Shown piece after piece: positions 6,287-49,937 of a stretch of 55,122 bases of DNA (its first letter is position 1; each line of letters starts with the position of its first letter). The notes beneath the pieces were generated by a model. That model had not been told where the DNA came from, ran no database searches, and saw only the letters and a program-made list of their open reading frames with translations. Source of the DNA: a virus. Lineage: Duplodnaviria; Caudoviricetes. A program made the position numbers and the translations under genes. The stretch is taken from IMG/VR virus record IMGVR_UViG_3300048800_000064, positions 1-55,122 of that record, one strand, 5' to 3'.

Positions 6287-6447
6287 GCCTGCTCTTCTGC
6301 TCAAGCTGCGGCGACGAGGTCGAGATGGACGGCTCTGAGCCCGTCGACGACGACGCTTTGGTAGCCGACGGCGAGGTCATGTGTGGCGACTGCCGCCGCG
6401 AGGAGCGCAACGACGACGACGTGGACGAGGAGAGCATCGGTTGGTAG
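6283..6447 (+). CDS. Small Zn-ribbon acidic protein
   Basis: CSSCG...CGDC. Confidence 0.55.
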   Translation: MSLLFCSSCGDEVEMDGSEPVDDDALVADGEVMCGDCRREERNDDDVDEESIGW

Positions 6448-6611
6448 TGCTGGCGATTCGGCGGCTGTACCTTGCCTACCAGTTCTGGCGCTTAAAGCGC
6501 GCGACGAGGAGGATGGCGGTCGCAATGATGCGGCTCGAGCTGGCCGCCTGGGCGGGCGCACACGTCATGACCTATTTCGCTGGCGTCTGTCGGGCGGCGA
6601 AGCTCGCATGA
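6447..6611 (+). CDS. Hypothetical protein
   Basis: Coupled ORF VLAIRRLY... Confidence 0.45.
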   Translation: MLAIRRLYLAYQFWRLKRATRRMAVAMMRLELAAWAGAHVMTYFAGVCRAAKLA

Positions 6612-7054
6612 GAGAGCTGATCGGCAGCAGCGACGCACGGCTCCGCACGCCTTCCAAGCGCGTGGCAGCCGTCGATGACGCCGTCCGGGAGCTCGCCGCC
6701 GACATGGCTGAGGTCATGTTCGAGCACGGCGGCGTGGGGCTGGCAGCTCCGCAGATCGGGGTGCTCAGGAGGGTGATCGTCTACAAGGCGCCGAGCAATG
6801 GCGAGGTTCGCGTGCTGGTCAACCCTTGGATCACGCGCAGCTCCGGGCGGATGTCCCATCAGGAGGCCTGCCTGTCGCTGCCGGGCGTCCTGGTCTGGGT
6901 GCAGCGCGCCGCTGAGGTCACCGTCCGCGGCTCCGACCACACCGGACGCAGGGTGCGGATCCGGGCCACGGGCGGGCTGGCCCGCCGCCTGCAGCACGAG
7001 ATCGATCACTTGGACGGAGTTCTTATCACCGACCATGCGGCGAAGGCGGCATGA
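6608..7054 (+). CDS. def: Peptide deformylase
   Basis: All three PDF motifs: GVGLAAPQIG, EACLS, QHEIDHLDG. Confidence 0.95.
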   Translation: MRELIGSSDARLRTPSKRVAAVDDAVRELAADMAEVMFEHGGVGLAAPQIGVLRRVIVYKAPSNGEVRVLVNPWITRSSGRMSHQEACLSLPGVLVWVQRAAEVTVRGSDHTGRRVRIRATGGLARRLQHEIDHLDGVLITDHAAKAA

Positions 7055-12062: not shown

Positions 12063-13859
12063 ATCGGTAAGGCCAAGGGACCAACAGAAGGGCGCGCGGG
12101 CGGCCGAGCGGAGACTGACGCCGGATTCCCGGTAGGCAAGGCCCCCAACCCGCTCGAGCTCGGCGTCTCGGGCACCAGGATCATCGCTGGTCTCACCTAC
12201 GAGGAGACCAACACCCAGCTCCAGGGCATGAACGGGTACCGCAAGTACCAGGAGATGCGCTTCGACCCGACCTGCGCCGCGGTCCTCAAGGCAATCGAGT
12301 ATCCGATCCGTGCTGCCCGCCATTTTGTCGAGCCCGCCTCTGACGATCCCAAGGACGTGCAGAAGGCGGATCACGTGCATGACCAGCTTTTCGAATTTGG
12401 TAGCCAAACAATGGACGACGTCCTCCGGCTCGCGTTCGGCAAGCTGACCTGGGGCTTCTCGTGGTCGGAGATCTGCTACTCGATGATCGAGAGCGGGCCC
12501 TGGGCGGGGAAGTGGGGCTGGGACAAGTTCGCCTGGCGGTCCCCCGCCACCAAGTGGCGCTGGAACATGGGCGAGGTCGACGGCCGGCAGGAGCTCGTCA
12601 GCGTCACCCAGCTGGCGCCGCCGTTCTACCAGGCGATCGACATCCCGCGCGACAAACTGCTGCTCTGGGTCAATGACCAGGAGGGCGACAACTACGACGG
12701 CATCAGCACCCTGCGCGCCGCCTACAAGCCCTACGTCTATCGCGACGTGCTGTACCGGATCCAGGCGATCGGCCTGCAGCGCAGCTACATGGGCATTCCG
12801 CGGGCCAAGGTGCCGGCGCAGTGGAGCACTGAGCTGAAGACCCTCATCGCCCAGATCCTCGAGAACCTGCGGACCGACGAGACCGCCGGCTTTGCCGTCC
12901 CCGAGGACGTCGACATCGATTTCATCTTCAACCGGCTCAACGGCGACGCCATGCAGAAGGCGATCGCCCACCATGACGTCCAGATCGTGGCCCAGGCCCT
13001 GGCCGACTTCCTCAAGCTCGGCACTGGCGACGTCGGCTCCTTTGCGCTCTCGAGCGACAAGAGCGAGCTGTTCCTGTACGCCCTGAACGGTCACGCCAAC
13101 TACTTCGACCAGGTCCTCAACCTCTACCCGGGGATCCCGCTGCTGATCACCTACAACTTCGCCGACGCGGACCCGGCCAAGATGCCACGGCTGGTGCATG
13201 GCGACATCGGGCAGCGGGCGCTGGACAAGCTCGGGCGCACCCTGGCAGCGCTTACGACGACCGGCTTCCTGACGCCCGACGACCCCACCGAAGACAAGCT
13301 GCGGCAGATGCTGGACTTCCCCGAGCGCGACAGCAGCATCACCGACCGGGCGCTGGCCGATCTGGTGGAGGAGGTTTTCCCGCGGCAGGCTGATCGCGGT
13401 CGGAGCAGTACTGACTCGGGACCCCGCCTGCGCCCCAAAACGCTGGTCGTGCCGCCGGACGGGCTGCCGACGCCGGTTGGCCAGGGTCCCGATGCCGGGC
13501 TGCCAGCGCAGATGTCGGAGCGCAAGGCCGAGGCCTTCCGGGAGCTGCAGCGCATGGTCGCCCAGCGTCCCTTCCGGCGGTCTACCAACATCCGCACCGA
13601 CCGGGCCCGGATCCAGATGAGCGAGATGTTGATTGACGCCCTCGATGATGCCCGGAGCGGCATCGGCGCCAGGCCTGATCGGCCTTCGATCCGGATGGCG
13701 AAGGCGCGCACGCCCTACAAGGTGCTGCCGGCTCCCGCGGTGACTGTTCCGCGGCCACAGCGAGCACTAAGCCAGCGGCCGGCGACCGCGGAGCGGGTGC
13801 GGCCACATGCGGCGCGGATCCGCCAGGCGCTCTACCACGTTGGCAGCCGCGGCCGCTGA
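12063..13859 (+). CDS. Portal protein (DUF935/Mu gp29-like); first ATG at 12228, probable ATC start at 12063
   Basis: ELGVSGTRI..EETNTQLQG..YQEMRFD, IPRDKLLL..QEGDNYDGISTLRAAYKPY, GSFALS; position after terL. Confidence 0.9.
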   Translation: MGKAKGPTEGRAGGRAETDAGFPVGKAPNPLELGVSGTRIIAGLTYEETNTQLQGMNGYRKYQEMRFDPTCAAVLKAIEYPIRAARHFVEPASDDPKDVQKADHVHDQLFEFGSQTMDDVLRLAFGKLTWGFSWSEICYSMIESGPWAGKWGWDKFAWRSPATKWRWNMGEVDGRQELVSVTQLAPPFYQAIDIPRDKLLLWVNDQEGDNYDGISTLRAAYKPYVYRDVLYRIQAIGLQRSYMGIPRAKVPAQWSTELKTLIAQILENLRTDETAGFAVPEDVDIDFIFNRLNGDAMQKAIAHHDVQIVAQALADFLKLGTGDVGSFALSSDKSELFLYALNGHANYFDQVLNLYPGIPLLITYNFADADPAKMPRLVHGDIGQRALDKLGRTLAALTTTGFLTPDDPTEDKLRQMLDFPERDSSITDRALADLVEEVFPRQADRGRSSTDSGPRLRPKTLVVPPDGLPTPVGQGPDAGLPAQMSERKAEAFRELQRMVAQRPFRRSTNIRTDRARIQMSEMLIDALDDARSGIGARPDRPSIRMAKARTPYKVLPAPAVTVPRPQRALSQRPATAERVRPHAARIRQALYHVGSRGR

Positions 13860-13871
13860 GGCCGATGCTGA

Positions 13872-15587
13872 ATGAAGACTGCCGCCACCCCTGAGGCGAA
13901 GAAGAAGGCGCTCCACCTCGTCAAAAACGAGGGCCTATCGATCCGAGCCGCAGCAGCAGCCGCCGGCGTCCCGCATTCCTCCCTTCACGATTGGATTCGC
14001 CGTGGCGAGCCCGCCTACGACACCGAGCCAACCCCCGCCCCGAGCGTGGCCGACACCGAGGACGAGGCCGCCCGCCGGATGGAGCAGGCGTCTCAGACCG
14101 GCACCGAGGCCGACCCCACCATGGGGATGCCGCCGGCGCTCAAGCCCGGTGAGGAGCAGGGAACACCGCCGACCAACGCGGACCTCGAGGACAAGCAGCC
14201 CGACCTAACCACGCTGGGCGCGCTGTACCGCTACGTGAACCTGACGGCCAACGACGTCGCTCACCACGTGGCCGTCGAGGCCGCCCGGCGCATCAGTCCC
14301 AACTTCGACATCTCCACCGACCACCACCGGCGGATCCGCAACGCGCTGGGCAAAGGTGACGAGCCAGTCAGGTTGTCGGAGAAGGCGCGCCGCCAGGTCC
14401 CGGGCAACAAGGGCGTCATGATCGCCCTGATCCCGCCGGGGACGGCTGCGCGCCAGCTCGCCGAGGTCGGCGATGAACCCGTGGATCAGATCCACATGAC
14501 ACTCGCCTACCTGGGCAAGTCGGACGAGTACGAGCCAGCGCAGTTGGACGAGCTTCGGGCGGTGCTGGCGCAGTTCGCGTGGAGCGAGCGGCCGATCAGC
14601 TGCCAGGCCTCGGGGACGGGCCGGTTCCGCGCCGGCGGCGACGCCAAGGACGCTTGGTATTGCTCGGTCGACGCCCCGGCGCTGCCCGGGATGAGGGAGC
14701 GGATGATGCAGGCGCTGTGGGCCGCCGGCTTCTACCCCAGCCAGCTGCACGGCTTCTCCCCGCACATGACCATGGAGTACCTCGAGCGGGACGCGCCCAC
14801 GCCGGACGACAAGGATGTCCCGACACCGGCATGGATCTCAGAGGCGCTCACGGTCGCGGTCGACGAGGACTGGGATGACCTGCCGTTCCGACAGCGGATG
14901 TCGGAGCAACTCGACTTCGCGAACATCGCTCCGCCGAGCTACGTGCAGGACACCTACGCCCGCTGGGAGATGACCGACGCGCAGGCGAGAACCCTGGCGG
15001 ACGACATCTACGCGACCCGGCTTGACGGCTACGCCGCGGCGATCAATGACCAACTGCAGGCGCTCGGTCGGCCGATGGTCGCGTCGGTCAGCCACCCCGA
15101 TGTGCTCGCGCAGTTGCGCCAGGAGGCTAACACCTCTTCGGCTCAAATCCTGCAGACCTACAACCGTGATCTGGCCAGTGAGGTTTACACCCAGTACATC
15201 GAGCTGAGGGGCACCCTCGGCCGACAAACCTCCGAATACCAACTGGACCAGGCGACCCAGACATGGATCGACGACCGGGCTGAATGGAAAGCGAAGCAGG
15301 TTGCCGCCAACGAATTCGGTGCTGCTTACAGCGCTGGCCTCGGCGACTTCCTCAGCCAGAACTCGCTGAATCCGATGGGTCACGTCGAGCCGCCAGACGC
15401 TCAATGCACCATCTGCCAGGAAGCGATCGATATGGGCACAGCACCGGCGGATGAACTGAACAGCATCATTCCGCCGCACATTGGCTGCTCGCACGAGGTC
15501 GTCCTCCATTGGGAGGAGGGAGCCGTTGATCCGGGCGCCGACGTATGGACGGGCCAGGAGTCCCCAATGGGCGAGGCGGCGGCTTAG
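13872..15587 (+). CDS. Head morphogenesis (MuF-like) protein fused to an N-terminal HTH and a central 2H phosphoesterase (Acb1-like) domain
   Basis: HTH GLSIRAAAAAAGVPHSSLHDW; two HxT motifs HMTLAY (14493) and HMTMEY (14763); MuF C-terminus CTIC...IPPHIGCSH. Confidence 0.85.
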   Translation: MKTAATPEAKKKALHLVKNEGLSIRAAAAAAGVPHSSLHDWIRRGEPAYDTEPTPAPSVADTEDEAARRMEQASQTGTEADPTMGMPPALKPGEEQGTPPTNADLEDKQPDLTTLGALYRYVNLTANDVAHHVAVEAARRISPNFDISTDHHRRIRNALGKGDEPVRLSEKARRQVPGNKGVMIALIPPGTAARQLAEVGDEPVDQIHMTLAYLGKSDEYEPAQLDELRAVLAQFAWSERPISCQASGTGRFRAGGDAKDAWYCSVDAPALPGMRERMMQALWAAGFYPSQLHGFSPHMTMEYLERDAPTPDDKDVPTPAWISEALTVAVDEDWDDLPFRQRMSEQLDFANIAPPSYVQDTYARWEMTDAQARTLADDIYATRLDGYAAAINDQLQALGRPMVASVSHPDVLAQLRQEANTSSAQILQTYNRDLASEVYTQYIELRGTLGRQTSEYQLDQATQTWIDDRAEWKAKQVAANEFGAAYSAGLGDFLSQNSLNPMGHVEPPDAQCTICQEAIDMGTAPADELNSIIPPHIGCSHEVVLHWEEGAVDPGADVWTGQESPMGEAAA

Positions 15588-16941: not shown

Positions 16942-18831
16942 GTGAGAACCCCAGCTGTCATAGCTCTTGATCTCAACGTTGAGGCGTTTCGTCTTGGCGA
17001 GAGCAAGCAGCTGCCCTTCGCGAAGGTCGGCGAGTGGGACTTCCCCGAGGACTACGGCGAGTTCAATGTCACGCCCGACCACCTCGACGCGATCGAGAAA
17101 CATTTCCGGGCCGACGTCCGTCGCGTGGAGGTCCCGCTGCTCAACGAGGAGCACGGACCCGGCGCGGTCGGCTGGATCACCGACTTCGTTCGCGTAGCCC
17201 CCGATCGACTGGACGCGATCGTTGAGCTCAACTCCCGCGGGGAGCAGGCACTGGCCAATGACGAGTACCGGCGTGTCAGCCCAGAGATCCTGCGCGACTA
17301 CTTCGACGCCGAGACGGGCGAGTCCTACAGCATGGTGGCGGCTGGGTTGGCGCTGACCACGGCTCCCCGGCTGAAGGCACTGGACCGGATCGCCGCCTCT
17401 GAGCATCCGCGGATCCTCGCCTTTGCCGAGTCCCCCAGCGAGCTCACCACGGTCGGCAGCCATATCGACGGATCGATGGGAAACACCAGCGTTGCCTATG
17501 CCATCCCCGAGCTGAAGCGTCTGCCCATCAACAGCAAGGCCCAGGTCAAGGGGTCTGTGGCCCGCTTCGCGAAGGTCCGCAACCAGGACGGCACGCCGCT
17601 CACTGAAACGCAGCGCACCGCAGCGTGGGAAAAGATCGCTGCCGCCGCGAAGAAGTTTGGCATCGACGTGCCGTCTCGCTACAGCGAACTGCGGCTCAGC
17701 CCCCAACAGACGGCCGAGTATCTGATGGCTGAGGCGGTGAAGCACACCCACGCCAAGCGTGGCGGCGGCAAGACGACACACGAACACGACGACGCCACCA
17801 AGGGACACGGCCACGACGGCCTGCTGCCCGCCTTCAACATGGCCGAGGGCGACGACGTCGGCGACGGCGACCAGGACTTCGATGACCAGCCGTGCCCGAG
17901 CTGCGGCGCCGAGGACATGGACGTGATCTCCATGGACCTGCGCTGCCCGTCGTGCGGCACCCACGCCAGCTTCCACGCACCCTCGCAGTTGTTCGCGGAG
18001 ATAAGCGGCAAGCAGCGCGACGCCCTGGATGCCGGCGCCTTCGCCGTTCCGGGCAAGCGGCAGCTGCCCATCCAGGACGCTGCCCACGTGCGCAATGCCA
18101 TCGCTCGATTCAGCCAGACGAAGGACTTGACACCTGAGGAAAAGGCCGCTGCCAAAACGCGAATCCAAGCAGCCGCGAAGACGTTTGGTATCAACGTCGG
18201 AGACGATTTCAGTGAAATCGCCGGGGCAACTTTGCGGCCCGGTTTCAATGACGCCGTGCCTGACGACACCACACCGAAGCCGGAACCCACTCCGACACCA
18301 GCGCCGGAACCGACTCCCGAGCCCGCGCCTGAGCCCGCGCCTGCACCGGCCCCCGAGCCCGCGCCTGCACCTGAGGCTTCGGCCCAGAAGCCAGCGGACT
18401 TCGCCGAGTTGAGCACCATGCACATGGCCGAGGTCGCTGAGAACAAGAAGCTCAAGGCCAGGGTCCAGGAGCTCAGCGAGAACATGGCCCGTCAGGAGAC
18501 CGCGCAGAAGATGGCGGTGGTCGCCGAGCGGATCGACGGACTGGTTCGTGAGGGAAAGATCACCCCCGCCGAGGCCGAGACCTTCAAGGAAAACACCCGG
18601 CTCGTCAAGCTCTCCGAAGACTCCTGGCCCCTTGACGTTCTCGCTGGCCGCAAGCCTGTGGTCGAGATGCGCGAGCGCGGCACCGACGGGATCGGGGCTG
18701 AGGCGATTGACGACGGCACCCGGCTCGCCGAAGCCGCCAAGGTCCTGATGTCCGAGAAGGCCAAGGGCGGCACCAAGATCACCATGAAGGAAGCGATCCT
18801 CGAAGTCGCTCGCCTGGGGTACAGGGGCTAA
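16942..18831 (+). CDS. Mu-like prohead protease fused to two DUF6582-like domains, His-rich and Zn-ribbon modules, and scaffold
   Basis: NEEH..AVGWI, EYRRVSPE, GLALTTAPRLK; KRLPIN..ARF..AAAKKFGID and QLPIQDAAHVRNAIARF..AAAKTFGIN; C-terminal coiled coil and GKITPAE. Confidence 0.85.
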   Translation: MRTPAVIALDLNVEAFRLGESKQLPFAKVGEWDFPEDYGEFNVTPDHLDAIEKHFRADVRRVEVPLLNEEHGPGAVGWITDFVRVAPDRLDAIVELNSRGEQALANDEYRRVSPEILRDYFDAETGESYSMVAAGLALTTAPRLKALDRIAASEHPRILAFAESPSELTTVGSHIDGSMGNTSVAYAIPELKRLPINSKAQVKGSVARFAKVRNQDGTPLTETQRTAAWEKIAAAAKKFGIDVPSRYSELRLSPQQTAEYLMAEAVKHTHAKRGGGKTTHEHDDATKGHGHDGLLPAFNMAEGDDVGDGDQDFDDQPCPSCGAEDMDVISMDLRCPSCGTHASFHAPSQLFAEISGKQRDALDAGAFAVPGKRQLPIQDAAHVRNAIARFSQTKDLTPEEKAAAKTRIQAAAKTFGINVGDDFSEIAGATLRPGFNDAVPDDTTPKPEPTPTPAPEPTPEPAPEPAPAPAPEPAPAPEASAQKPADFAELSTMHMAEVAENKKLKARVQELSENMARQETAQKMAVVAERIDGLVREGKITPAEAETFKENTRLVKLSEDSWPLDVLAGRKPVVEMRERGTDGIGAEAIDDGTRLAEAAKVLMSEKAKGGTKITMKEAILEVARLGYRG

Positions 18832-41771: not shown

Positions 41772-41869
41772 TGCTGGCGATCATCGAGACCAGCGGCATC
41801 ACCCTGCTCGATGTCCTGATCGCGGTCCTGATCGTCGCCCTCATCGTCTTCATCCTCAAGCGGATATGA
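41771..41869 (+). CDS. 32-aa single-TM peptide (holin/antiholin-like)
   Basis: MLAIIETSGITLLDVLIAVLIVALIVFILKRI, coupled to the endolysin. Confidence 0.6.
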   Translation: MLAIIETSGITLLDVLIAVLIVALIVFILKRI

Positions 41870-43698
41870 CGCTGAGCCAAAATGACCCGCGCTGGCGGGG
41901 CAAGCGCCTGGGTGGCGGCCCAGACACCATCGGTGCGGACGGTTGCTTCCTGACCAGCTTCGCGCAGCTGATGACATGGGCTGGCCATGCGATCGACCCG
42001 GGACAGCTCGACGACCAGATCCACTTCTCCGGCGGCGAGCTGCTGGGCGATTCCGCTCTGCAGGATCTCCACCCCGACCTGTGGAAGCTAGAGGAGATCT
42101 ACCACTGTGAGTCGATCCCGTGCGACCAGAACAAGCTCAACAATGACGACCCCAACCTCTACGTGATCGTCGAGCTTTCCGGAGGGTCGTTGGGCAGAGG
42201 CACCCACTTCTCGCCGATCGTCGACTGGCACGCCGTCACGATCGCCGACACTTGGGTGGGTCAGGTCCGGCCAGTCTCGGTCTGGGGCGCGCCTTGGCAG
42301 AGGCTAATCCAGAAGGTTCTCCGCTACCGATACATCGGCGCCGGCGCGGCACCAGCCCCTGCACCGACGCCCGCCCCAGCGCCGACTCCAGCCCCAGCGC
42401 CGACTCCAGCCGCCACATTCGCCGGCGTGGTGGCTGCAGGAGGGGTCCGCGTCCGTCACCTCCCGGGGACCGACCAGCCGATCATCCTCCAGCCCGGGCC
42501 CGGAGACCCGCAGGTTGTCAACGGTGGCATCGGCCTAACCTTCGATGCCTGGTGTCATCACACACCGAAGGGCGGGGACGACAGCGTCGTGCTCGACACC
42601 TCTTACAACCCGCCGCGCGCTGACGATCGATGGTTCCGGACCAGCCCCGGAGGTCACTGGCTAGCCTCAGCGGGAATCAACTATGCCAACGGAGCCGATC
42701 CGCCAGCGAACCTGCTCATCGGTGACCCCGCGGGCGCCACGCCGCCGGCGCCGCTGCCAGCACCGGCACCTGGACCCAAGCCAACCACGGTCCCCTTCAC
42801 CGGCGACGTCGACGCGCCCAAGGGCGTGCTCTGCTGGGAGTGGACCGACCAGGCCGACTACGGCAAGCTGAAGGGTCTCGGCTACAAGGGGGCCCTCATC
42901 CGGGCGGCCAACGGTGCCGGTGGCAGCACCGACGCGGCGCAGTATCAGGCTTGGGTCGCGCGCGCGCCGCTGGCCCGCGCGGCCGGCCTCAAGGCGTATG
43001 CCTGGGCCTTCTGGTACGGCGAGGGAGACGCCGGCTACACCGAGGCAGATCCCGCCGCCTACCTGATGACCTGCGTCGACAACCTTCTGTCGAGGCCGAT
43101 TGATACCGACGCCTTCTTCATCGACTACGAGAGCCGGGACGACACCGGGTTGGCTGCCGCGCTCCAGGCGCTGCGTGACCGTTCGGGCAAGGCCGTCTTC
43201 CTCTGTCCACCAGGGGATCCCGTGGAGTACGGGCTCAAGTGGAACCTCAAGGCGATCGACGCCGCGGTCGATGGCTGGTGCCCCCAGGTCTACACCAGCG
43301 CCTGGCTGACGATCTCCTTCCAGCAGGCGCTGGCTGAGTGGAGCGCGGAGAACGATCCCAACGTCTACCGCGAGCCCCGCGTCTTCCCCGTGTCGGACGA
43401 GCCGGATCCCGCCAAAGCGGCGCAATGGGCGCAGCAGGCGATGATCGATGGCCTCACGGGGTGGAGCGTGTGGCGGGCCGGAACTGTGGGCGATGCGGCG
43501 CTGGCGGCATACGCGCACTCCACGCCGGCGCCGACGCCAGTCCCCGTGCCCTCCCCGGGGCCAAGCCCGGCGCCGCTGCCAGCGCCGTCACCCACTCCAA
43601 CTCCAGCCCCTGACCCTGTTCCGACCCCACCACCTGGCGCGCTCAGCTGGCTGCAGCTGCTCGTCAACTGGCTCGTCCGCCTCTTCGGGCGGAAGTAA
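41866..43698 (+). CDS. Modular endolysin: C39-like peptidase, SH3-like domain, GH25-like glycosidase
   Basis: SQNDPRW..TIGADGCFLTS..THF; PA linkers; GLKAYAWAFWY, FFIDYE, PQVY; C-terminal amphipathic helix. Confidence 0.85.
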   Translation: MTLSQNDPRWRGKRLGGGPDTIGADGCFLTSFAQLMTWAGHAIDPGQLDDQIHFSGGELLGDSALQDLHPDLWKLEEIYHCESIPCDQNKLNNDDPNLYVIVELSGGSLGRGTHFSPIVDWHAVTIADTWVGQVRPVSVWGAPWQRLIQKVLRYRYIGAGAAPAPAPTPAPAPTPAPAPTPAATFAGVVAAGGVRVRHLPGTDQPIILQPGPGDPQVVNGGIGLTFDAWCHHTPKGGDDSVVLDTSYNPPRADDRWFRTSPGGHWLASAGINYANGADPPANLLIGDPAGATPPAPLPAPAPGPKPTTVPFTGDVDAPKGVLCWEWTDQADYGKLKGLGYKGALIRAANGAGGSTDAAQYQAWVARAPLARAAGLKAYAWAFWYGEGDAGYTEADPAAYLMTCVDNLLSRPIDTDAFFIDYESRDDTGLAAALQALRDRSGKAVFLCPPGDPVEYGLKWNLKAIDAAVDGWCPQVYTSAWLTISFQQALAEWSAENDPNVYREPRVFPVSDEPDPAKAAQWAQQAMIDGLTGWSVWRAGTVGDAALAAYAHSTPAPTPVPVPSPGPSPAPLPAPSPTPTPAPDPVPTPPPGALSWLQLLVNWLVRLFGRK

Positions 43699-44927: not shown

Positions 44928-45491
44928 TCAGCCCTTCACGTCAATGTGCCAGCTCCCTTCGCTTATTATCTCGAGGAAATACGTGCCGCCCTTGTGGTAG
45001 TGCTGCGTATCCTCTCCCTTCAGTCCCGATTGGCTGACACCCTGGTTGTCGAATTGGACTGAGCCATCGCCGTTCTTGATCGTCACGATGAAGTTGCACG
45101 CTTGACCAAAGGCCGCGCAGTCGTAGGTGTAGTGCAGGTCCCAGTCGCCGCCAGCCGTGAACTTCTGGGTGGATTTGGTGCCGGTGCCGTCCAGGGTGAG
45201 CAGCTGGGCTGCGGCTGCAGGAGCCTTGGACGCCCCAGCCGCGGGCGACTTGTCGGCGACGGCGGGAGTGCTGGTGCTCTTCTTTCCAGCGCCGCCCGCA
45301 ACGGCGATGATCACAATCAGGACGATGAGGCCCAGGCACCCAACACCCAGGTTGCGGACCATGTGCCCGCTCTTGGGCGCCGGCGGCTTGGCTAAGTTTG
45401 GGTTGGGAGCCCACTGGCTTCCGTCCCAGACGTATTGGCCATCAGGGGAAACGGTTCCCGGGGCGCTCGGTGGCGGCTGTTGCTGACTCAA
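44928..45491 (-). CDS. Membrane-anchored surface protein (moron)
   Basis: AGGAGG SD, TTG start, TAAGAT -10; SPDGQYVWDGSQW, one TM, extracellular beta domain. Confidence 0.85.
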   Translation of the reverse strand: MSQQQPPPSAPGTVSPDGQYVWDGSQWAPNPNLAKPPAPKSGHMVRNLGVGCLGLIVLIVIIAVAGGAGKKSTSTPAVADKSPAAGASKAPAAAAQLLTLDGTGTKSTQKFTAGGDWDLHYTYDCAAFGQACNFIVTIKNGDGSVQFDNQGVSQSGLKGEDTQHYHKGGTYFLEIISEGSWHIDVKG

Positions 45492-45547
45492 AATTCTCCT
45501 CCTATCCTCTGGCGCATCTTAGCTGGTGGGGGCCTGGTCGCGGGATC

Positions 45548-46420
45548 TCAGGCCGTCCGGCCGATGCGGCTGAGATGCTCGTCGAGCGCGACAATAGCGT
45601 TGCGGGCCGCCTCGTCGTCGTCGCTCAGGTAGAGTTGGGTGGTGGCCAGCGACGAGTGCCGCATCAGCCGCCGCAGGGTGTTGATGTCCGTTTGGCTCTG
45701 CCCGCGCAGGATCAGGTTGGCGTAGGAGTGGCGGAGCATATGGGGGACCACTCCTTTTAATGCATCTCCGGACACCCGCTTCCACGCCTTCGAGATGGCG
45801 CGGGTGGAGAGCTTGCCGTTGGGTCCGGTGAAGGCCCAGCCGCCGTCGATGCCAAAGGCCTCGAAGTACAAAGCCAGGGTGTCGGCTGTCGTCTGCCCCA
45901 TCGGCAGCCAGGCGTCGGTGCCGCCCTTGCCCTGGCGGGCGCGGATGCGCCTACCGGCCACATCCACGTCCAGGAAATGCAGGTTGGTCACGTCCTCCAG
46001 CCGGAACCCCTGGAAGAGCAGCAGCATGATCTCGGCCTTGTCCTTGATCCGCGCAGAGCGCAGGCGAAGGGTCAGCATCTCAAGCTCCGTCTCGGTGAGT
46101 GCCCGCCGCCTAGCCTGCGACTTGGGCGGCGGTGACATCTGCCGGAACGGCGATACGGGGCCCCCATGTCCCTCCCACCAGCGGAAGAACAAGGACAGCA
46201 CCACGAAGTTCGAGCGGCGGACATGGACTGAGGCGTGGGGTCCGAGCCGCAGCGACAGGCAGTCCCGCATGTCCTCCGGCTCGAACTCGTGCGGCAGGGC
46301 TCGGAAGGTGACCGTCAGGATCGAGCGGTACGTGCGGATGGTGTTGGGCGAAAGGCCCCGGAGGTCCCTTTGCTCACGCAGCCACTCAGCCCCGACCCTG
46401 GCCAGCTCAGTCTTTAACAT
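45548..46420 (-). CDS. int: Tyrosine integrase lacking an arm-binding domain (alternative start 46441)
   Basis: GFRLEDV, QGKGG, HMLRHSYA, LMRHSSLATTQLY. Confidence 0.92.
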   Translation of the reverse strand: MLKTELARVGAEWLREQRDLRGLSPNTIRTYRSILTVTFRALPHEFEPEDMRDCLSLRLGPHASVHVRRSNFVVLSLFFRWWEGHGGPVSPFRQMSPPPKSQARRRALTETELEMLTLRLRSARIKDKAEIMLLLFQGFRLEDVTNLHFLDVDVAGRRIRARQGKGGTDAWLPMGQTTADTLALYFEAFGIDGGWAFTGPNGKLSTRAISKAWKRVSGDALKGVVPHMLRHSYANLILRGQSQTDINTLRRLMRHSSLATTQLYLSDDDEAARNAIVALDEHLSRIGRTA

Positions 46421-46496
46421 TTCTTTCACCCTAACCGCCACGCCGCAAGGCCGGGGGCTTCAGTCCGGTGACGCGCCCGTGATGTTATTGACACGA

Positions 46497-47054
46497 CTAC
46501 GCGACGGCGGCCCACTCCGGGTCTGAGTTCAAGCCATCGAGAATTCGGGGGTACCAGTTGGTAGAGCAGCGGTCTGAAGAACCGCGTGTCGGCGGTTCGA
46601 TTCCGTCTCTCGGCACCATCTCCCCGAACCACGGTTCGTCGTAGTCGTGCAGTTTGCGGATCTTCGGGAGAGGCGAACGGCTGGCGCCTCGGCTGGCCTT
46701 GGTCCGGACGTAGCGCTGGCGATGGCTCTTGAGATGCTGCAATAGGGTGTTGGCGGCGATAATCCGGTCGGCGGTCGTGGGCAGGCTGGCCAAGTCGCTG
46801 GCCAGCTCGCGCTCCAGCTGCGCGGCGAAGGCCTCGGTATCCAGGTGGTACAGCGCGACCAAGCGGTAGGCGTCCTCGACCAGCGGACGGACGTTGGACT
46901 CCAGCGTCGACACGTTGGCGGCGGTCACCTTGCCGCCGGTGGCCATGGCCACGTCATGGGTTCTGTCCTTGCCCCTAGAGGCCCGGAGCGCCTCGCCCAG
47001 GGTACGGTAGCGGGGGGACCCGAGGTCTAGGATGTTCTCGGAGTCGGTTGCCAT
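46497..47054 (-). CDS. Immunity repressor (XRE HTH) whose 3' end spans attP
   Basis: TLGEALRASR..THDVAMAT..TAANVSTLESNVRP; GGAGG SD; divergent from cro. Confidence 0.8.
   Translation of the reverse strand: MATDSENILDLGSPRYRTLGEALRASRGKDRTHDVAMATGGKVTAANVSTLESNVRPLVEDAYRLVALYHLDTEAFAAQLERELASDLASLPTTADRIIAANTLLQHLKSHRQRYVRTKASRGASRSPLPKIRKLHDYDEPWFGEMVPRDGIEPPTRGSSDRCSTNWYPRILDGLNSDPEWAAVA
46555..46618 (+). other. attP common core: 3' 64 nt of a tRNA-Phe(GAA)
   Basis: CAGTTGGTAGAGC-AGCGGTCTGAAGAACCGC-..GGTTCGATTCC-GTCTCTCGGCACCA; 5' acceptor and D-stem strands missing; next to int. Confidence 0.9.
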
Positions 47055-47070
47055 AGGGCCTCCGTCTTAG

Positions 47071-47216
47071 ACGAATACGTTGTCAACGCGCGTTATCGTC
47101 GCACATCTTCGTATTCACCGCAACCACTAACCACACGTAATCGTTCCTAAGTCCTGCGTCTGACGCGGGTTCTCAGAACCGCTTGACTTCCACGTATCCG
47201 TGTGCGACGATTCCGT
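47071..47216. promoter_or_regulatory. Immunity region: ACG-N4-CGT operators and sigma70-type rightward promoter
   Basis: Operators at 47071, 47090 (GCG variant), 47135, 47192, 47207; TTGACT(47183)-N17-GACGAT-N6-ATG. Confidence 0.7.
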
Positions 47217-47217
47217 C

Positions 47218-47475
47218 ATGCCCAAAACGTCGCCGACCAAACTGGCTATCCAGCGCCACCGCGAGCAGAGAGGGATCTCAATGCAGGACGCCGCTGATGG
47301 CGCGGGTGTCGACGTGAACACCTGGCGGCGGTGGGAGAGGGGAGAGCTGATCCCTCGCGCCGACCTGCTCTTCGCGATTGCTCGAACGTTGGGCGTTTCA
47401 TCTGAGGCACTCAACGACTGGCCAGTAAAGCCACGACAGGGCCACCGCAAGCTCCCCGTCGCTGAGGTCGCATGA
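47218..47475 (+). CDS. Cro-like XRE HTH regulator (leaderless)
   Basis: REQRGISMQDAADGAGVDVNTWRRWERGELIP. Confidence 0.9.
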   Translation: MPKTSPTKLAIQRHREQRGISMQDAADGAGVDVNTWRRWERGELIPRADLLFAIARTLGVSSEALNDWPVKPRQGHRKLPVAEVA

Positions 47476-47846
47476 CCACAAAACGTGAGGCTCCGGATCT
47501 GACCCGGAGCCCCGAGAGGCCTGTAGCGCCTCGAAGGAGAAGTATGGCATTGGCAGTACCAATTCGGGAGCGGCTCGGAGTCCAAGGCCGCATCGCCGGC
47601 CACGGCCTGACGGTGGCTCGCACTGAGCGCCCGGACGGCTTCGTCCTCTACGAGGGCTCTTGCAGCTGCGGTCGGTGGAGCGACCGCTCCCTCTTCCGCA
47701 AGCTGGTCAGTGACGCCTACGCCCGGCACCTGGTCGACACGAAGCGTGACCCCGAAGGCAAGCACGACGCGATCCGGGGGCAGCTGCGGGCGGTGCGCGG
47801 TCCGCTGGCTCCCTCGACCGCTGGCGACCCGAAGGACCCGGCATGA
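47472..47846 (+). CDS. Hypothetical Zn-finger protein
   Basis: GHGLTV..CSCGRWS..HL. Confidence 0.6.
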   Translation: MTTKREAPDLTRSPERPVAPRRRSMALAVPIRERLGVQGRIAGHGLTVARTERPDGFVLYEGSCSCGRWSDRSLFRKLVSDAYARHLVDTKRDPEGKHDAIRGQLRAVRGPLAPSTAGDPKDPA

Positions 47847-48403: not shown

Positions 48404-48615
48404 AGCGGTCGCCCATCATCGCCGAGCAGCGGGTGCGTCCCCGCATCCTGGAAGTTTTGCTGGTCGACCTGCCGCGCGACATCGCCTACTACATCACCTC
48501 TGAGGGCCGGGAGGGCGGAGAGCGTCTTATGCCCTTCGCCGCCGCGGCCATCGTTGCGTTGGGGCTGTTCATCGTGGGCGCCCAGCTCGTGCTCCGGTTC
48601 GGGGGGCTGCACTGA
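48400..48615 (+). CDS. Small membrane protein
   Basis: Coupled ORF with a C-terminal TM segment. Confidence 0.55.
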   Translation: MKRSPIIAEQRVRPRILEVLLVDLPRDIAYYITSEGREGGERLMPFAAAAIVALGLFIVGAQLVLRFGGLH

Positions 48616-49937
48616 TGCCTATCGCTGGACTTTCAGAGCAGCGTCGGTTGCCGCGGGTCATGAAGATCCGCCTCGGCATCAAGACCAGGAACGCGCAGAA
48701 CGTCGAGTTCCCGAAGGAGGTCGACTACTTCTGCCTAAACAAGGAGGACTTCGCCTCCCCGGACATCTTCGCGGAGGTCAACGCGGCCTACGGCCAGCAG
48801 CCCAAGCAACTCAAGATGCTGCTGCCGTTCGAGGTCGACGCCATCAGCCCGATCGATGGCGACGAGTTGGTCTACAACCAATACAACCGCGCGTACGGCG
48901 CCGGCCACGGCTTGCGCTGCAAGGGATCGGGCGGATCCGCCAATCAACCCGGCACCGCGGAGACCAGCGACGTCGAGTGGGCCAAGCGCATCGGCCAAGA
49001 GACCGGGGTCCGTCCAACGAGGCTCCCCGGCGGGCGCCTCCAGGTCCAGTGCCTCGGCCGAGACTGCTGTAAATACGCAGCCCCTGGCCACGATGGAAAG
49101 GACGCGCCCGGCGGCGCGGCAGCGTGCAAGCAGATGCTGGTGTTCCGGGCCTTCCTGCTCCATCCCACCGACGACCCTATGAGCCCCGACTACTGCCGCC
49201 CCTTCGGCATCGCGGAGCTGGCGTCGAGCTCGTACAACACCATGGTCGACATCCGCTCGGGGCTAGAGATGCTCAAACCCTTCGCCAAGCGCACGGCCGC
49301 CGTTCCCTTCTGGCTGGTGCGGCACCCTCGCACGACCAACCACGACGGCAAGCGGCAGGTGCACTACACCTGCATGGTCATCTGGTCGGCCAAGGAGGTC
49401 CAGGCTGCGGGTCTGACCAGCCCCTCCGAGGTCTTCCTGCCGGCGGCGCTGCGCAAGGAGCTCAAGGCGCTGGGCGAGCCGGACTTCGATTCCGTGCGAG
49501 ACCTGCTGCCCGCAACCAACGGCTACCTGGAGGCGCCAGCCGTCGAGGCGCCGGCGCCCGACGTGCCCGGCGCTACGGCGTCTGACCGCGATGAGGTGGT
49601 GGCTGCCGCTGCTGCCGACGCTGCTGCCGACCCGGATGGCACCGAGCCGCTGCCAGCGGTCGACGAGGCCGCGGAGCAGCGGCAGCTGACTCAGGCCGAA
49701 CGCGACGAACTCAAGGCGCTGTGCGGCGGTCGTACCGATCCCGAGGATGCCAAGTCCCCCTTCAAGCCGGAGGCGATCGCCAAGCTCCAGGAGATGGTGC
49801 GGCACGCCTCCGCAGCGCTCGGCACCGAGCCGGCGGATGGCCAGTACCTGCTGAGCAGCCTGCAGGTCAGGCACAAGCGGTGGATTGTCGATCAGCTCGC
49901 AGCGGAAGGCGTGGCGGTTCAAGAGGCAATGGTGTGA
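48615..49937 (+). CDS. Gp3-like / recombination-directionality-factor-like protein
   Basis: RRLPRVMKIRLG..FPKEVDYF, LRCKGSG, SSSYN; sits beside the exonuclease. Confidence 0.7.
   Translation: MPIAGLSEQRRLPRVMKIRLGIKTRNAQNVEFPKEVDYFCLNKEDFASPDIFAEVNAAYGQQPKQLKMLLPFEVDAISPIDGDELVYNQYNRAYGAGHGLRCKGSGGSANQPGTAETSDVEWAKRIGQETGVRPTRLPGGRLQVQCLGRDCCKYAAPGHDGKDAPGGAAACKQMLVFRAFLLHPTDDPMSPDYCRPFGIAELASSSYNTMVDIRSGLEMLKPFAKRTAAVPFWLVRHPRTTNHDGKRQVHYTCMVIWSAKEVQAAGLTSPSEVFLPAALRKELKALGEPDFDSVRDLLPATNGYLEAPAVEAPAPDVPGATASDRDEVVAAAAADAAADPDGTEPLPAVDEAAEQRQLTQAERDELKALCGGRTDPEDAKSPFKPEAIAKLQEMVRHASAALGTEPADGQYLLSSLQVRHKRWIVDQLAAEGVAVQEAMV

Follow-up and report, generated by a model that had tools for sequence, protein, structure and literature searches.

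The int-rep-cro region of the record

The DNA analysed here, which we call the window, is an entire IMG/VR viral record of 55,122 bases, classed as linear, with a G+C content of 65.7% and a CheckV completeness of 59%. Most of its genes lie on the plus strand. Our analysis concerns a leftward gene pair, an integrase gene (int) and a putative repressor gene (rep), and the divergent cro-like gene beside it. The features are as follows.

12228-13859: Mu-type portal gene, with other head genes
Near 41.8-44.9 kb: lysis region
45.5-47.1 kb, minus strand: leftward gene pair (int, rep)
45548-46441, minus strand: tyrosine integrase, a 297-aa ORF with core-binding and catalytic domains only (Pfam Phage_integrase, E 1.2e-17)
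46492-46501 and 46640-46649: 10-base perfect inverted repeat flanking the attP core, centred near the anticodon stem
46497-47054, minus strand: putative immunity repressor, 185-aa viral form, from the ORF list, with GGAGG 5 bases before its ATG
46497-46554, minus strand: tail of the viral form, 19 codons (WYPRILDGLNSDPEWAAVA) plus stop, predicted to be split off rep by integration
46555-46618, plus strand: attP common core, the last 64 bases (D-loop to CCA) of a host tRNA-Phe(GAA) gene, matched exactly in contigs L002 and L003
46620-47054, minus strand: repressor body, residues 1-145, an orphan sequence with no relative detected
47055-47217: rep-cro intergenic region, 163 bp, with candidate operators
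47200-47475, plus strand: Cro-like helix-turn-helix (HTH) protein, first gene of the rightward early operon (Pfam HTH_3, E 1.1e-11; NCBIfam RstR family, E 1.5e-10)
From 47.2 kb, plus strand: early operon, encoding a Gp3-like protein, a PD-(D/E)XK nuclease, a RuvC-like protein and a DNA methylase
48615-49937, plus strand: the Gp3-like protein of the early operon, from a 'recombination directionality factor-like' family (PF18897, E 3.3e-22, residues 17-254)

Searches for a near relative of the phage among 50,697 phage records found none (megablast of 45400-47600; tblastn of rep), and IMG/VR viral-contig scans with rep, a 35-base piece of the core, int and the Gp3-like protein gave no match.

We placed the start of the integrase at the ATG at 46420, a choice made for an identical database protein, which gives a product of 290 aa. 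Its Pfam Phage_integrase match, the only one to this family in the record, covers residues 115-276. Residues 24-281 align with positions 6-261 of the 263-position NCBIfam archaeal XerA profile (E 5.3e-33), and residues 25-281 with residues 20-271 of the PDB XerA structure 4a8e. These alignments with two-domain Xer proteins take up nearly the whole length of Int and leave no space for an arm-binding domain. PDB entry 5vfz ('Gp33'), which we take to be the Brujita integrase, also matches (E 3.7e-12). Ten metagenome relatives, 49-100% identical to Int and all 285-308 aa long, share with it invariant R140, K165, H227, R230, H255 and Y264, which completes the R-K-H-R-H/W-Y set. The nearest phage integrases, at 22-29% identity, come from Mycobacterium, Gordonia, Brevibacillus, Listeria and Staphylococcus phages. 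We also found 17 distant int loci among viral contigs (24-47% identity), and at the three looked at (L117, L118 and L122) a whole tRNA lies downstream of int, which is the classical arrangement. The integrase ORF of L118 (1474-2745) itself starts with an antisense tRNA-like stretch (GPEGLEPSTRG), with the whole tRNA gene after it, and may reflect nested or tandem integration.

Three absences were each counted in favour of an integration-dependent switch: the record has no match to an HTH_17-type excisionase, no match to a serine recombinase (Resolvase family) and no terminator-like site between rep and int. Counted against such a switch was the Gp3-like gene 1.6 kb to the right, in a record that is possibly incomplete. 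Gp3 of phiC31 acts on a serine integrase. Because the Gp3-like protein is encoded among replication and recombination genes, we read it as part of that module; it could conceivably have a role in excision.

Across the 163-bp gap from rep, the cro-like gene probably starts at the ATG at 47218, and its product is the only firm HTH match (Pfam). Just 3' of this gene, at 47487-47513, lies a 12-pair G+C-rich stem-loop that scores as a terminator on the minus strand only. The intergenic region contains four ACG-N4-CGT sites (at 47071, 47135, 47192 and 47207) and an 11-base perfect inverted repeat (47095-47105 and 47201-47211). Half of the eight ACG-N4-CGT matches in the window fall within this gap, an enrichment that is overstated because the motif was read off the same region. 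A search of the region for a sigma-70 consensus promoter found none.

The rep ORF lies directly upstream of the short integrase gene and is divergent from the Cro-like HTH gene; its 185-aa product ends in ...GSSDRCSTNWYPRILDGLNSDPEWAAVA. No relative of the rep body was detected in phage records, viral contigs or 5.8 billion proteins, which we counted against a switch. A HMMER search of 1.84 billion representatives returned five matches, all only to the tRNA-coded residues 146-170, and the four that we retrieved were rejected as relatives, being spurious ORFs over tRNA arrays. The three matches among 374 genomes of the host class were at chance level, as was the sole PDB match, a protocadherin (E 0.59), which we also rejected; PHROGs gave no match.

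Four signs agree, weakly, on a possible XRE-type HTH near rep residues 20-90. They are a match to Pfam HTH_31 at residues 22-75 (E 1.8), one to the NCBIfam RamB N-terminus at residues 20-91 (E 0.094), nearest Atlas clusters that carry HTH_31/HTH_3 (score 0.92-0.94), and the helix pattern of a single-sequence structure model. The model is poor (mean pLDDT 41.7) and its helix pattern agrees with the HTH signs, and we counted it both ways. Window-wide HTH_31 and HTH_3 scans each list the cro-like gene and two other weak places, and not rep.

We call rep a putative repressor mainly for its position between int and the divergent Cro-like gene. The 185-codon ORF could instead encode another lysogeny-phase or early protein and the true repressor could be another of the phage's HTH proteins, in which case integration would still truncate the ORF. 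This reading fits an ORF that has no significant family match, HTH profile scans that rank other places in the window above it, and a Cro-like protein that is the only firm HTH. We nevertheless judge it improbable. A repressor gene canonically sits between int and a divergent cro-like gene, as this ORF does, the coding signal is strong (GC3 = 0.84), and three sources give weak but concordant signals of an XRE-type HTH at residues 20-91.

The attP core and the predicted effect of integration on rep

ARAGORN calls no whole tRNA in the window. The Rfam tRNA model matches 46557-46615 on the plus strand at 24.7 bits (E 0.0072). That this falls short of the gathering score of 29 is in keeping with a tRNA copy without its 5' part; the 5' acceptor strand and the 5' D-stem are absent from the alignment. 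In a scan of the metagenome collection, the 64-mer at 46555-46618 was found exactly in two contigs, L002 and L003. ARAGORN calls a 76-base tRNA-Phe(GAA) in both, and its last 64 bases are the phage core, leaving the first 12 bases of the host gene missing from the phage. Identity between phage and host ends sharply at 46555 and 46618, which we counted in favour of a switch. To the left of the core the host reads ...GATAGCT and the phage ...GGGGTAC; to the right, just after the CCA end, the host reads GGATCC... and the phage TCTCCC... A match of 64 out of 64 bases to a tRNA gene, beside an integrase gene, is not chance. [quoted passage not shown]

Of the 10-base repeat that flanks the core, the left arm includes the rep stop codon and the right arm falls within the rep codons for HDYD. 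By our estimate, about 0.4 such pairs would be expected by chance in 900 bases, and the repeat could mark outer integrase sites or be a chance occurrence.

Across the left edge of the core the rep strand reads ACC AAC TGG TAC, and the third base of TGG (46554) lies just outside the core. Because the host carries T where the phage carries C at this position, integration in silico turns TGG into TGA. The recombinant then reads ACC AAC TGA and encodes a 166-aa product ending in CSTN instead of the 185-aa product, whose sequence is split at the core edge as ...GEMVPRDGIEPPTRGSSDRCSTN-WYPRILDGLNSDPEWAAVA. Translated antisense in the frame of rep, the host loci in L002 and L003 yield ...VPRDGIEPPTRGSSDRCSTN and then a stop. 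All 12 tRNA-Phe loci that we examined have GCTCAG at that place. The crossover could fall anywhere in the 64 bases without changing the product, since phage and host do not differ there. One predicted junction would carry an intact tRNA-Phe and the 166-aa Rep, and the other int and the 19-codon tail. In the record itself, which is in the attP state, rep and int are adjacent and have phage genes on both sides.

These comparisons confirm what an earlier note on this DNA predicted at the level of sequence. It had placed attP inside the repressor gene with a core at 46555-46618, and the two host contigs confirm those exact limits. A search with the same bases identified the host tRNA-Phe gene and the GCTCAG that the note had anticipated, now seen at every locus examined. 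The in-frame TGA that it proposed, with loss of 19 residues, is borne out by the host T next to the core, and its view of the record as the excised (attP) form is upheld by the adjacency of rep and int.

The genes on contig L003 are ordinary cellular ones. For its isopropylmalate dehydrogenase, a metagenome-assembled genome (MAG) titled Candidatus Dormiibacterota bacterium gives a match at 87% identity, followed by others at 72-74%. Among 301 sampled genomes from this MAG's class, tRNA-Phe is one base off in five and shows a compensated pair change in two; the exact 64-mer occurs in none of the species-genome contigs searched. L003 is colinear with L091, a contig of a genome (G021) in the compensated-change group, with 82.6% identity across 3.1 kb spanning both sides of the tRNA. 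The G+C content of the host contigs is 65.7-67.7%, compared with 65.7% for the phage. Judged by these comparisons, the host contig is colinear with genomes from the class of a Candidatus Dormiibacterota MAG and not with Actinomycetota; the NCBI taxonomy gives Candidatus Dormiibacterota separate phylum rank.

Parts of the stretch are present in three peat-metagenome runs, one of which may be where the record came from; no RNA run was listed among those containing it. In the same samples, loose contig ends at 46555 reveal the 5' part of the host tRNA. All three runs are represented by contigs that are interrupted inside the core, the point at which the phage and host paths join, and they are thus equally compatible with attP plus attB and with attL plus attR. 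Depth in one run (X1) is about 283-382 in the core, compared with about 61 on the phage arms. Over 45500-46583, a second run (X2) contains a variant that is nearly identical in int and the rep tail and has a handful of base changes, among them I253V in Int. The contigs of X2 and of the third run (X3) do not cover the rep body and are evidence neither way; its absence from X2 could reflect a swapped immunity region or merely an assembly gap.

We found no integrated copy and no natural attL in the genomes or contigs examined, which was counted against a switch. Rep lies beside tRNA-Phe in none of the 12 loci examined, and a search for int at E<=1e-25 found it in none of 374 host-class genomes. 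An apparent insertion after the tRNA in one genome (G013), suggested by a break in nucleotide similarity, was rejected because the same downstream gene is present in diverged form. The tRNA fragment could in principle be a relic or a recombination scar in a phage that no longer integrates at this site, and both the lack of an integrated copy and the 59% completeness of the record would suit this view. We regard it as very improbable, however, given an identity of 64 out of 64 bases to a tRNA gene from the same peat samples, intact catalytic residues in Int and metagenome Int relatives at 49-82% identity.

The predicted loss of the tail and the possible instability of the viral form

The 19-codon tail has G or C at 12/19, 10/19 and 15/19 of its first, second and third codon positions. 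It ends in EWAAVA, which is non-polar, alanine-rich and Ala-terminal but is not an xAA ending. We compared it with the tmRNA tags of five host-class genomes (AKNTQSLAFAA in two, and AKTPQTLAYAA, ANNNAELAIAA and ANKNAELALAA in one each). These host-lineage ssrA tags end in FAA, FAA, YAA, IAA and LAA, whereas the rep tail ends in AVA, and the difference was counted against a degron. In our own ORF list, 10 of the 52 phage ORFs end in [AV]A and 2 of 52 in four non-polar residues; the ending of rep alone is therefore weak evidence for a degron. The earlier note had described an ssrA-like AAVA tail: the AAVA ending is there, but its likeness to the xAA tags of the host is loose and [AV]A endings are common among the phage ORFs.

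Other observations were counted in favour of a switch. ClpX is present in all three close host relatives checked. In the X2 variant, the tail differs by the conservative Y168F and a silent change at L175, and the frame stays open; these changes, only two in number, are compatible with a reading frame that is being kept. Tags in the described family are loosely defined in any case, since BPs gp33 ends in LDKAS by its record annotation and published accounts speak of tags that are '--LAA, or similar'. For the integrase, comparison with its relatives made no clear C-terminal degradation tag evident, and this was counted against a switch. Int ends in IGRTA, and the relatives, which end in LAAL, RIAL, LSAM, SGP, SDA, PGA, AAQ and VAP, share no ending.

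The foregoing leaves room for a reading in which the phage chooses between lysis and lysogeny by other means, both forms of Rep being stable and active. A C-terminus that is common in this phage and differs from host tags would then call for no explanation, nor would an Int without a clear tag; and in DNA of 66% G+C, 19 open codons after the core are unremarkable. Yet the phage differs from the host precisely at the base where a stop would otherwise end its ORF, which suggests that the C-terminal extension is being kept. An armless Int, the rep-int order, a tRNA attB and the lack of an Xis-type gene also form the set that published accounts describe for dependent switches. We consider it unlikely, if less so than the alternatives above, that the two forms are equivalent.

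Our preferred interpretation is that the cassette probably works as an integration-dependent immunity switch of the BPs type. It would be the lysis-lysogeny cassette of a temperate phage that infects an uncultured bacterium of the Dormibacteria class, built like those of BPs, Brujita and Charlie. Recombination with tRNA-Phe anywhere in the 64 bases would rebuild the tRNA and leave rep ending at a TGA supplied by the host, and int with the 19-codon tail would come to lie at the opposite prophage end, separated from the region of the rep promoter. In the free phage, the 185-aa form would be unstable or inactive through its exposed alanine/valine C-terminus, a candidate for ClpXP-type recognition. 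The 166-aa prophage form would be the stable repressor, acting on the ACG-N4-CGT sites over the rightward promoter, and the armless integrase may by itself set the direction of recombination.

Relation to known switches and other features of the record

Five of the nine features that we listed for integration-dependent immunity of the BPs/Brujita/Charlie type are seen here: a compact cassette, attP inside rep, a rebuilt tRNA attB, a shorter Rep (predicted in silico) through a stop at the junction, and an armless integrase. The other four listed features are a degradation tag at the C-terminus of Rep, another on Int, the lack of a recombination directionality factor, and a short Rep that acts as the DNA-binding repressor while the long form is inactive. 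In the published layout, rep and int are co-directional, cro is divergent and the control region spans 100-300 bp. The resemblance to BPs is closest. Its int(32)-rep(33)-cro(34) order, with rep and int leftward, cro rightward and attP inside the 3' end of rep (described in parts of PMC3694055, PMC4557955 and PMC9262239), recurs here. So does a tRNA gene as attB, with a host base next to the core that creates the stop, as those accounts describe. The rep frame runs through the antisense tRNA in both phages, reading EGFEPPT in BPs and DGIEPPT here. The earlier note had likened the locus to BPs and its integrase to the armless kind; the ORF positions support the int-rep/divergent cro order and the end-to-end XerA alignments the lack of an arm-binding domain.

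The differences from BPs are nonetheless considerable. Rep has no sequence similarity to its BPs counterpart, the best BLASTP stretch being the tRNA-coded part (E 0.079), and Int is 30% identical to BPs Int over 169 aa only. The tRNA is Phe here and Arg in BPs, and the core is 64 bp compared with 35 bp. The codon changed is TGG here and a Cys codon in BPs, and 19 residues are lost compared with 33. The host phyla differ, and the switch described here is a prediction from sequence.

Among other integration systems, Int resembles the armless 'simple' tyrosine integrases of the IntBrujita subgroup (PMC8138268) in being a two-domain Xer-like phage protein of about 290-320 aa, but its best matches are archaeal XerA-type profiles and not the mycobacteriophage group. 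Its identity to Gordonia and Mycobacterium phage integrases is only 25-29%. In corynephage CyranoPS, the repressor Cyr_18 is reported in a preprint to lose a short C-terminal piece (15 residues) on integration while int loses its promoter, much as we predict here, although that phage has an actinobacterial host and a 14.9 kb genome (bioRxiv 10.64898/2026.10.29.762952). Systems predicted from sequence in Gordonia phages and Bifidobacterium prophages likewise combine attP in the repressor gene with an ssrA-like ending; in the accounts concerned, all have Actinomycetota hosts, unlike the present case (PMC5559632, PMC6109161). The cassette shares with lambda-type switches (CI/Cro, Int, Xis and arm-type sites) a divergent repressor and cro and a tyrosine integrase. 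It differs from lambda in an Int without an arm-binding domain, in having no Xis-type gene that we could find and in an attP inside the repressor gene.

Judged by titles and abstracts, published accounts of integration-dependent immunity concern Mycobacterium, Gordonia, Streptomyces, Bifidobacterium and Arthrobacter, all actinobacterial hosts, to which a preprint of 2026 adds a corynephage; 'prophages of various bacteria' are mentioned in the original paper of 2013. The papers found on Dormibacterota and prophages, again judged by titles and abstracts, do not deal with such a switch. We tentatively put forward the cassette as possibly the first integration-dependent immunity switch outside Actinomycetota, in a Dormibacterota phage and with a repressor unrelated to any known, although we hold this broader claim less firmly than the mechanism itself. 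Its notable points are the host phylum and the unrelated repressor; the kind of switch is already known. If the claim is true, the switch with attP inside the repressor is either of great age or readily arises anew wherever a tRNA gene is the target of an armless integrase. One published proposal sees integration-dependent immunity as a lysis-lysogeny switch of minimal design, with three genes, that may be ancestral (PMC3694055). With an attB that matches a tRNA gene of the Dormibacteria class, the present case would extend the range over which the switch is known and link a phage to a host phylum of which no member is in culture. With its 64-bp site, the armless Int would make a small, self-contained integration and immunity module that could suit surrogate hosts.

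Several genes elsewhere in the record are of separate interest. The phage encodes a peptide deformylase (6383-7054, plus strand; Pfam Pep_deformylase, E 8.7e-41), an auxiliary gene better known from cyanophages. Adjoining the portal gene, a 571-aa protein (13872-15587, plus strand) joins an N-terminal transposase/psq-type HTH to a 2'-5' RNA ligase/LigT-like phosphoesterase domain, an odd combination for a head-gene block. A 629-aa protein (16942-18831, plus strand) comprises a Mu-like prophage protease region and two DUF6582 stretches. The lysis region includes a 610-aa protein (41866-43698, plus strand) that matches no Pfam family at E<=0.001 and has long Pro/Ala/Thr-rich linkers.
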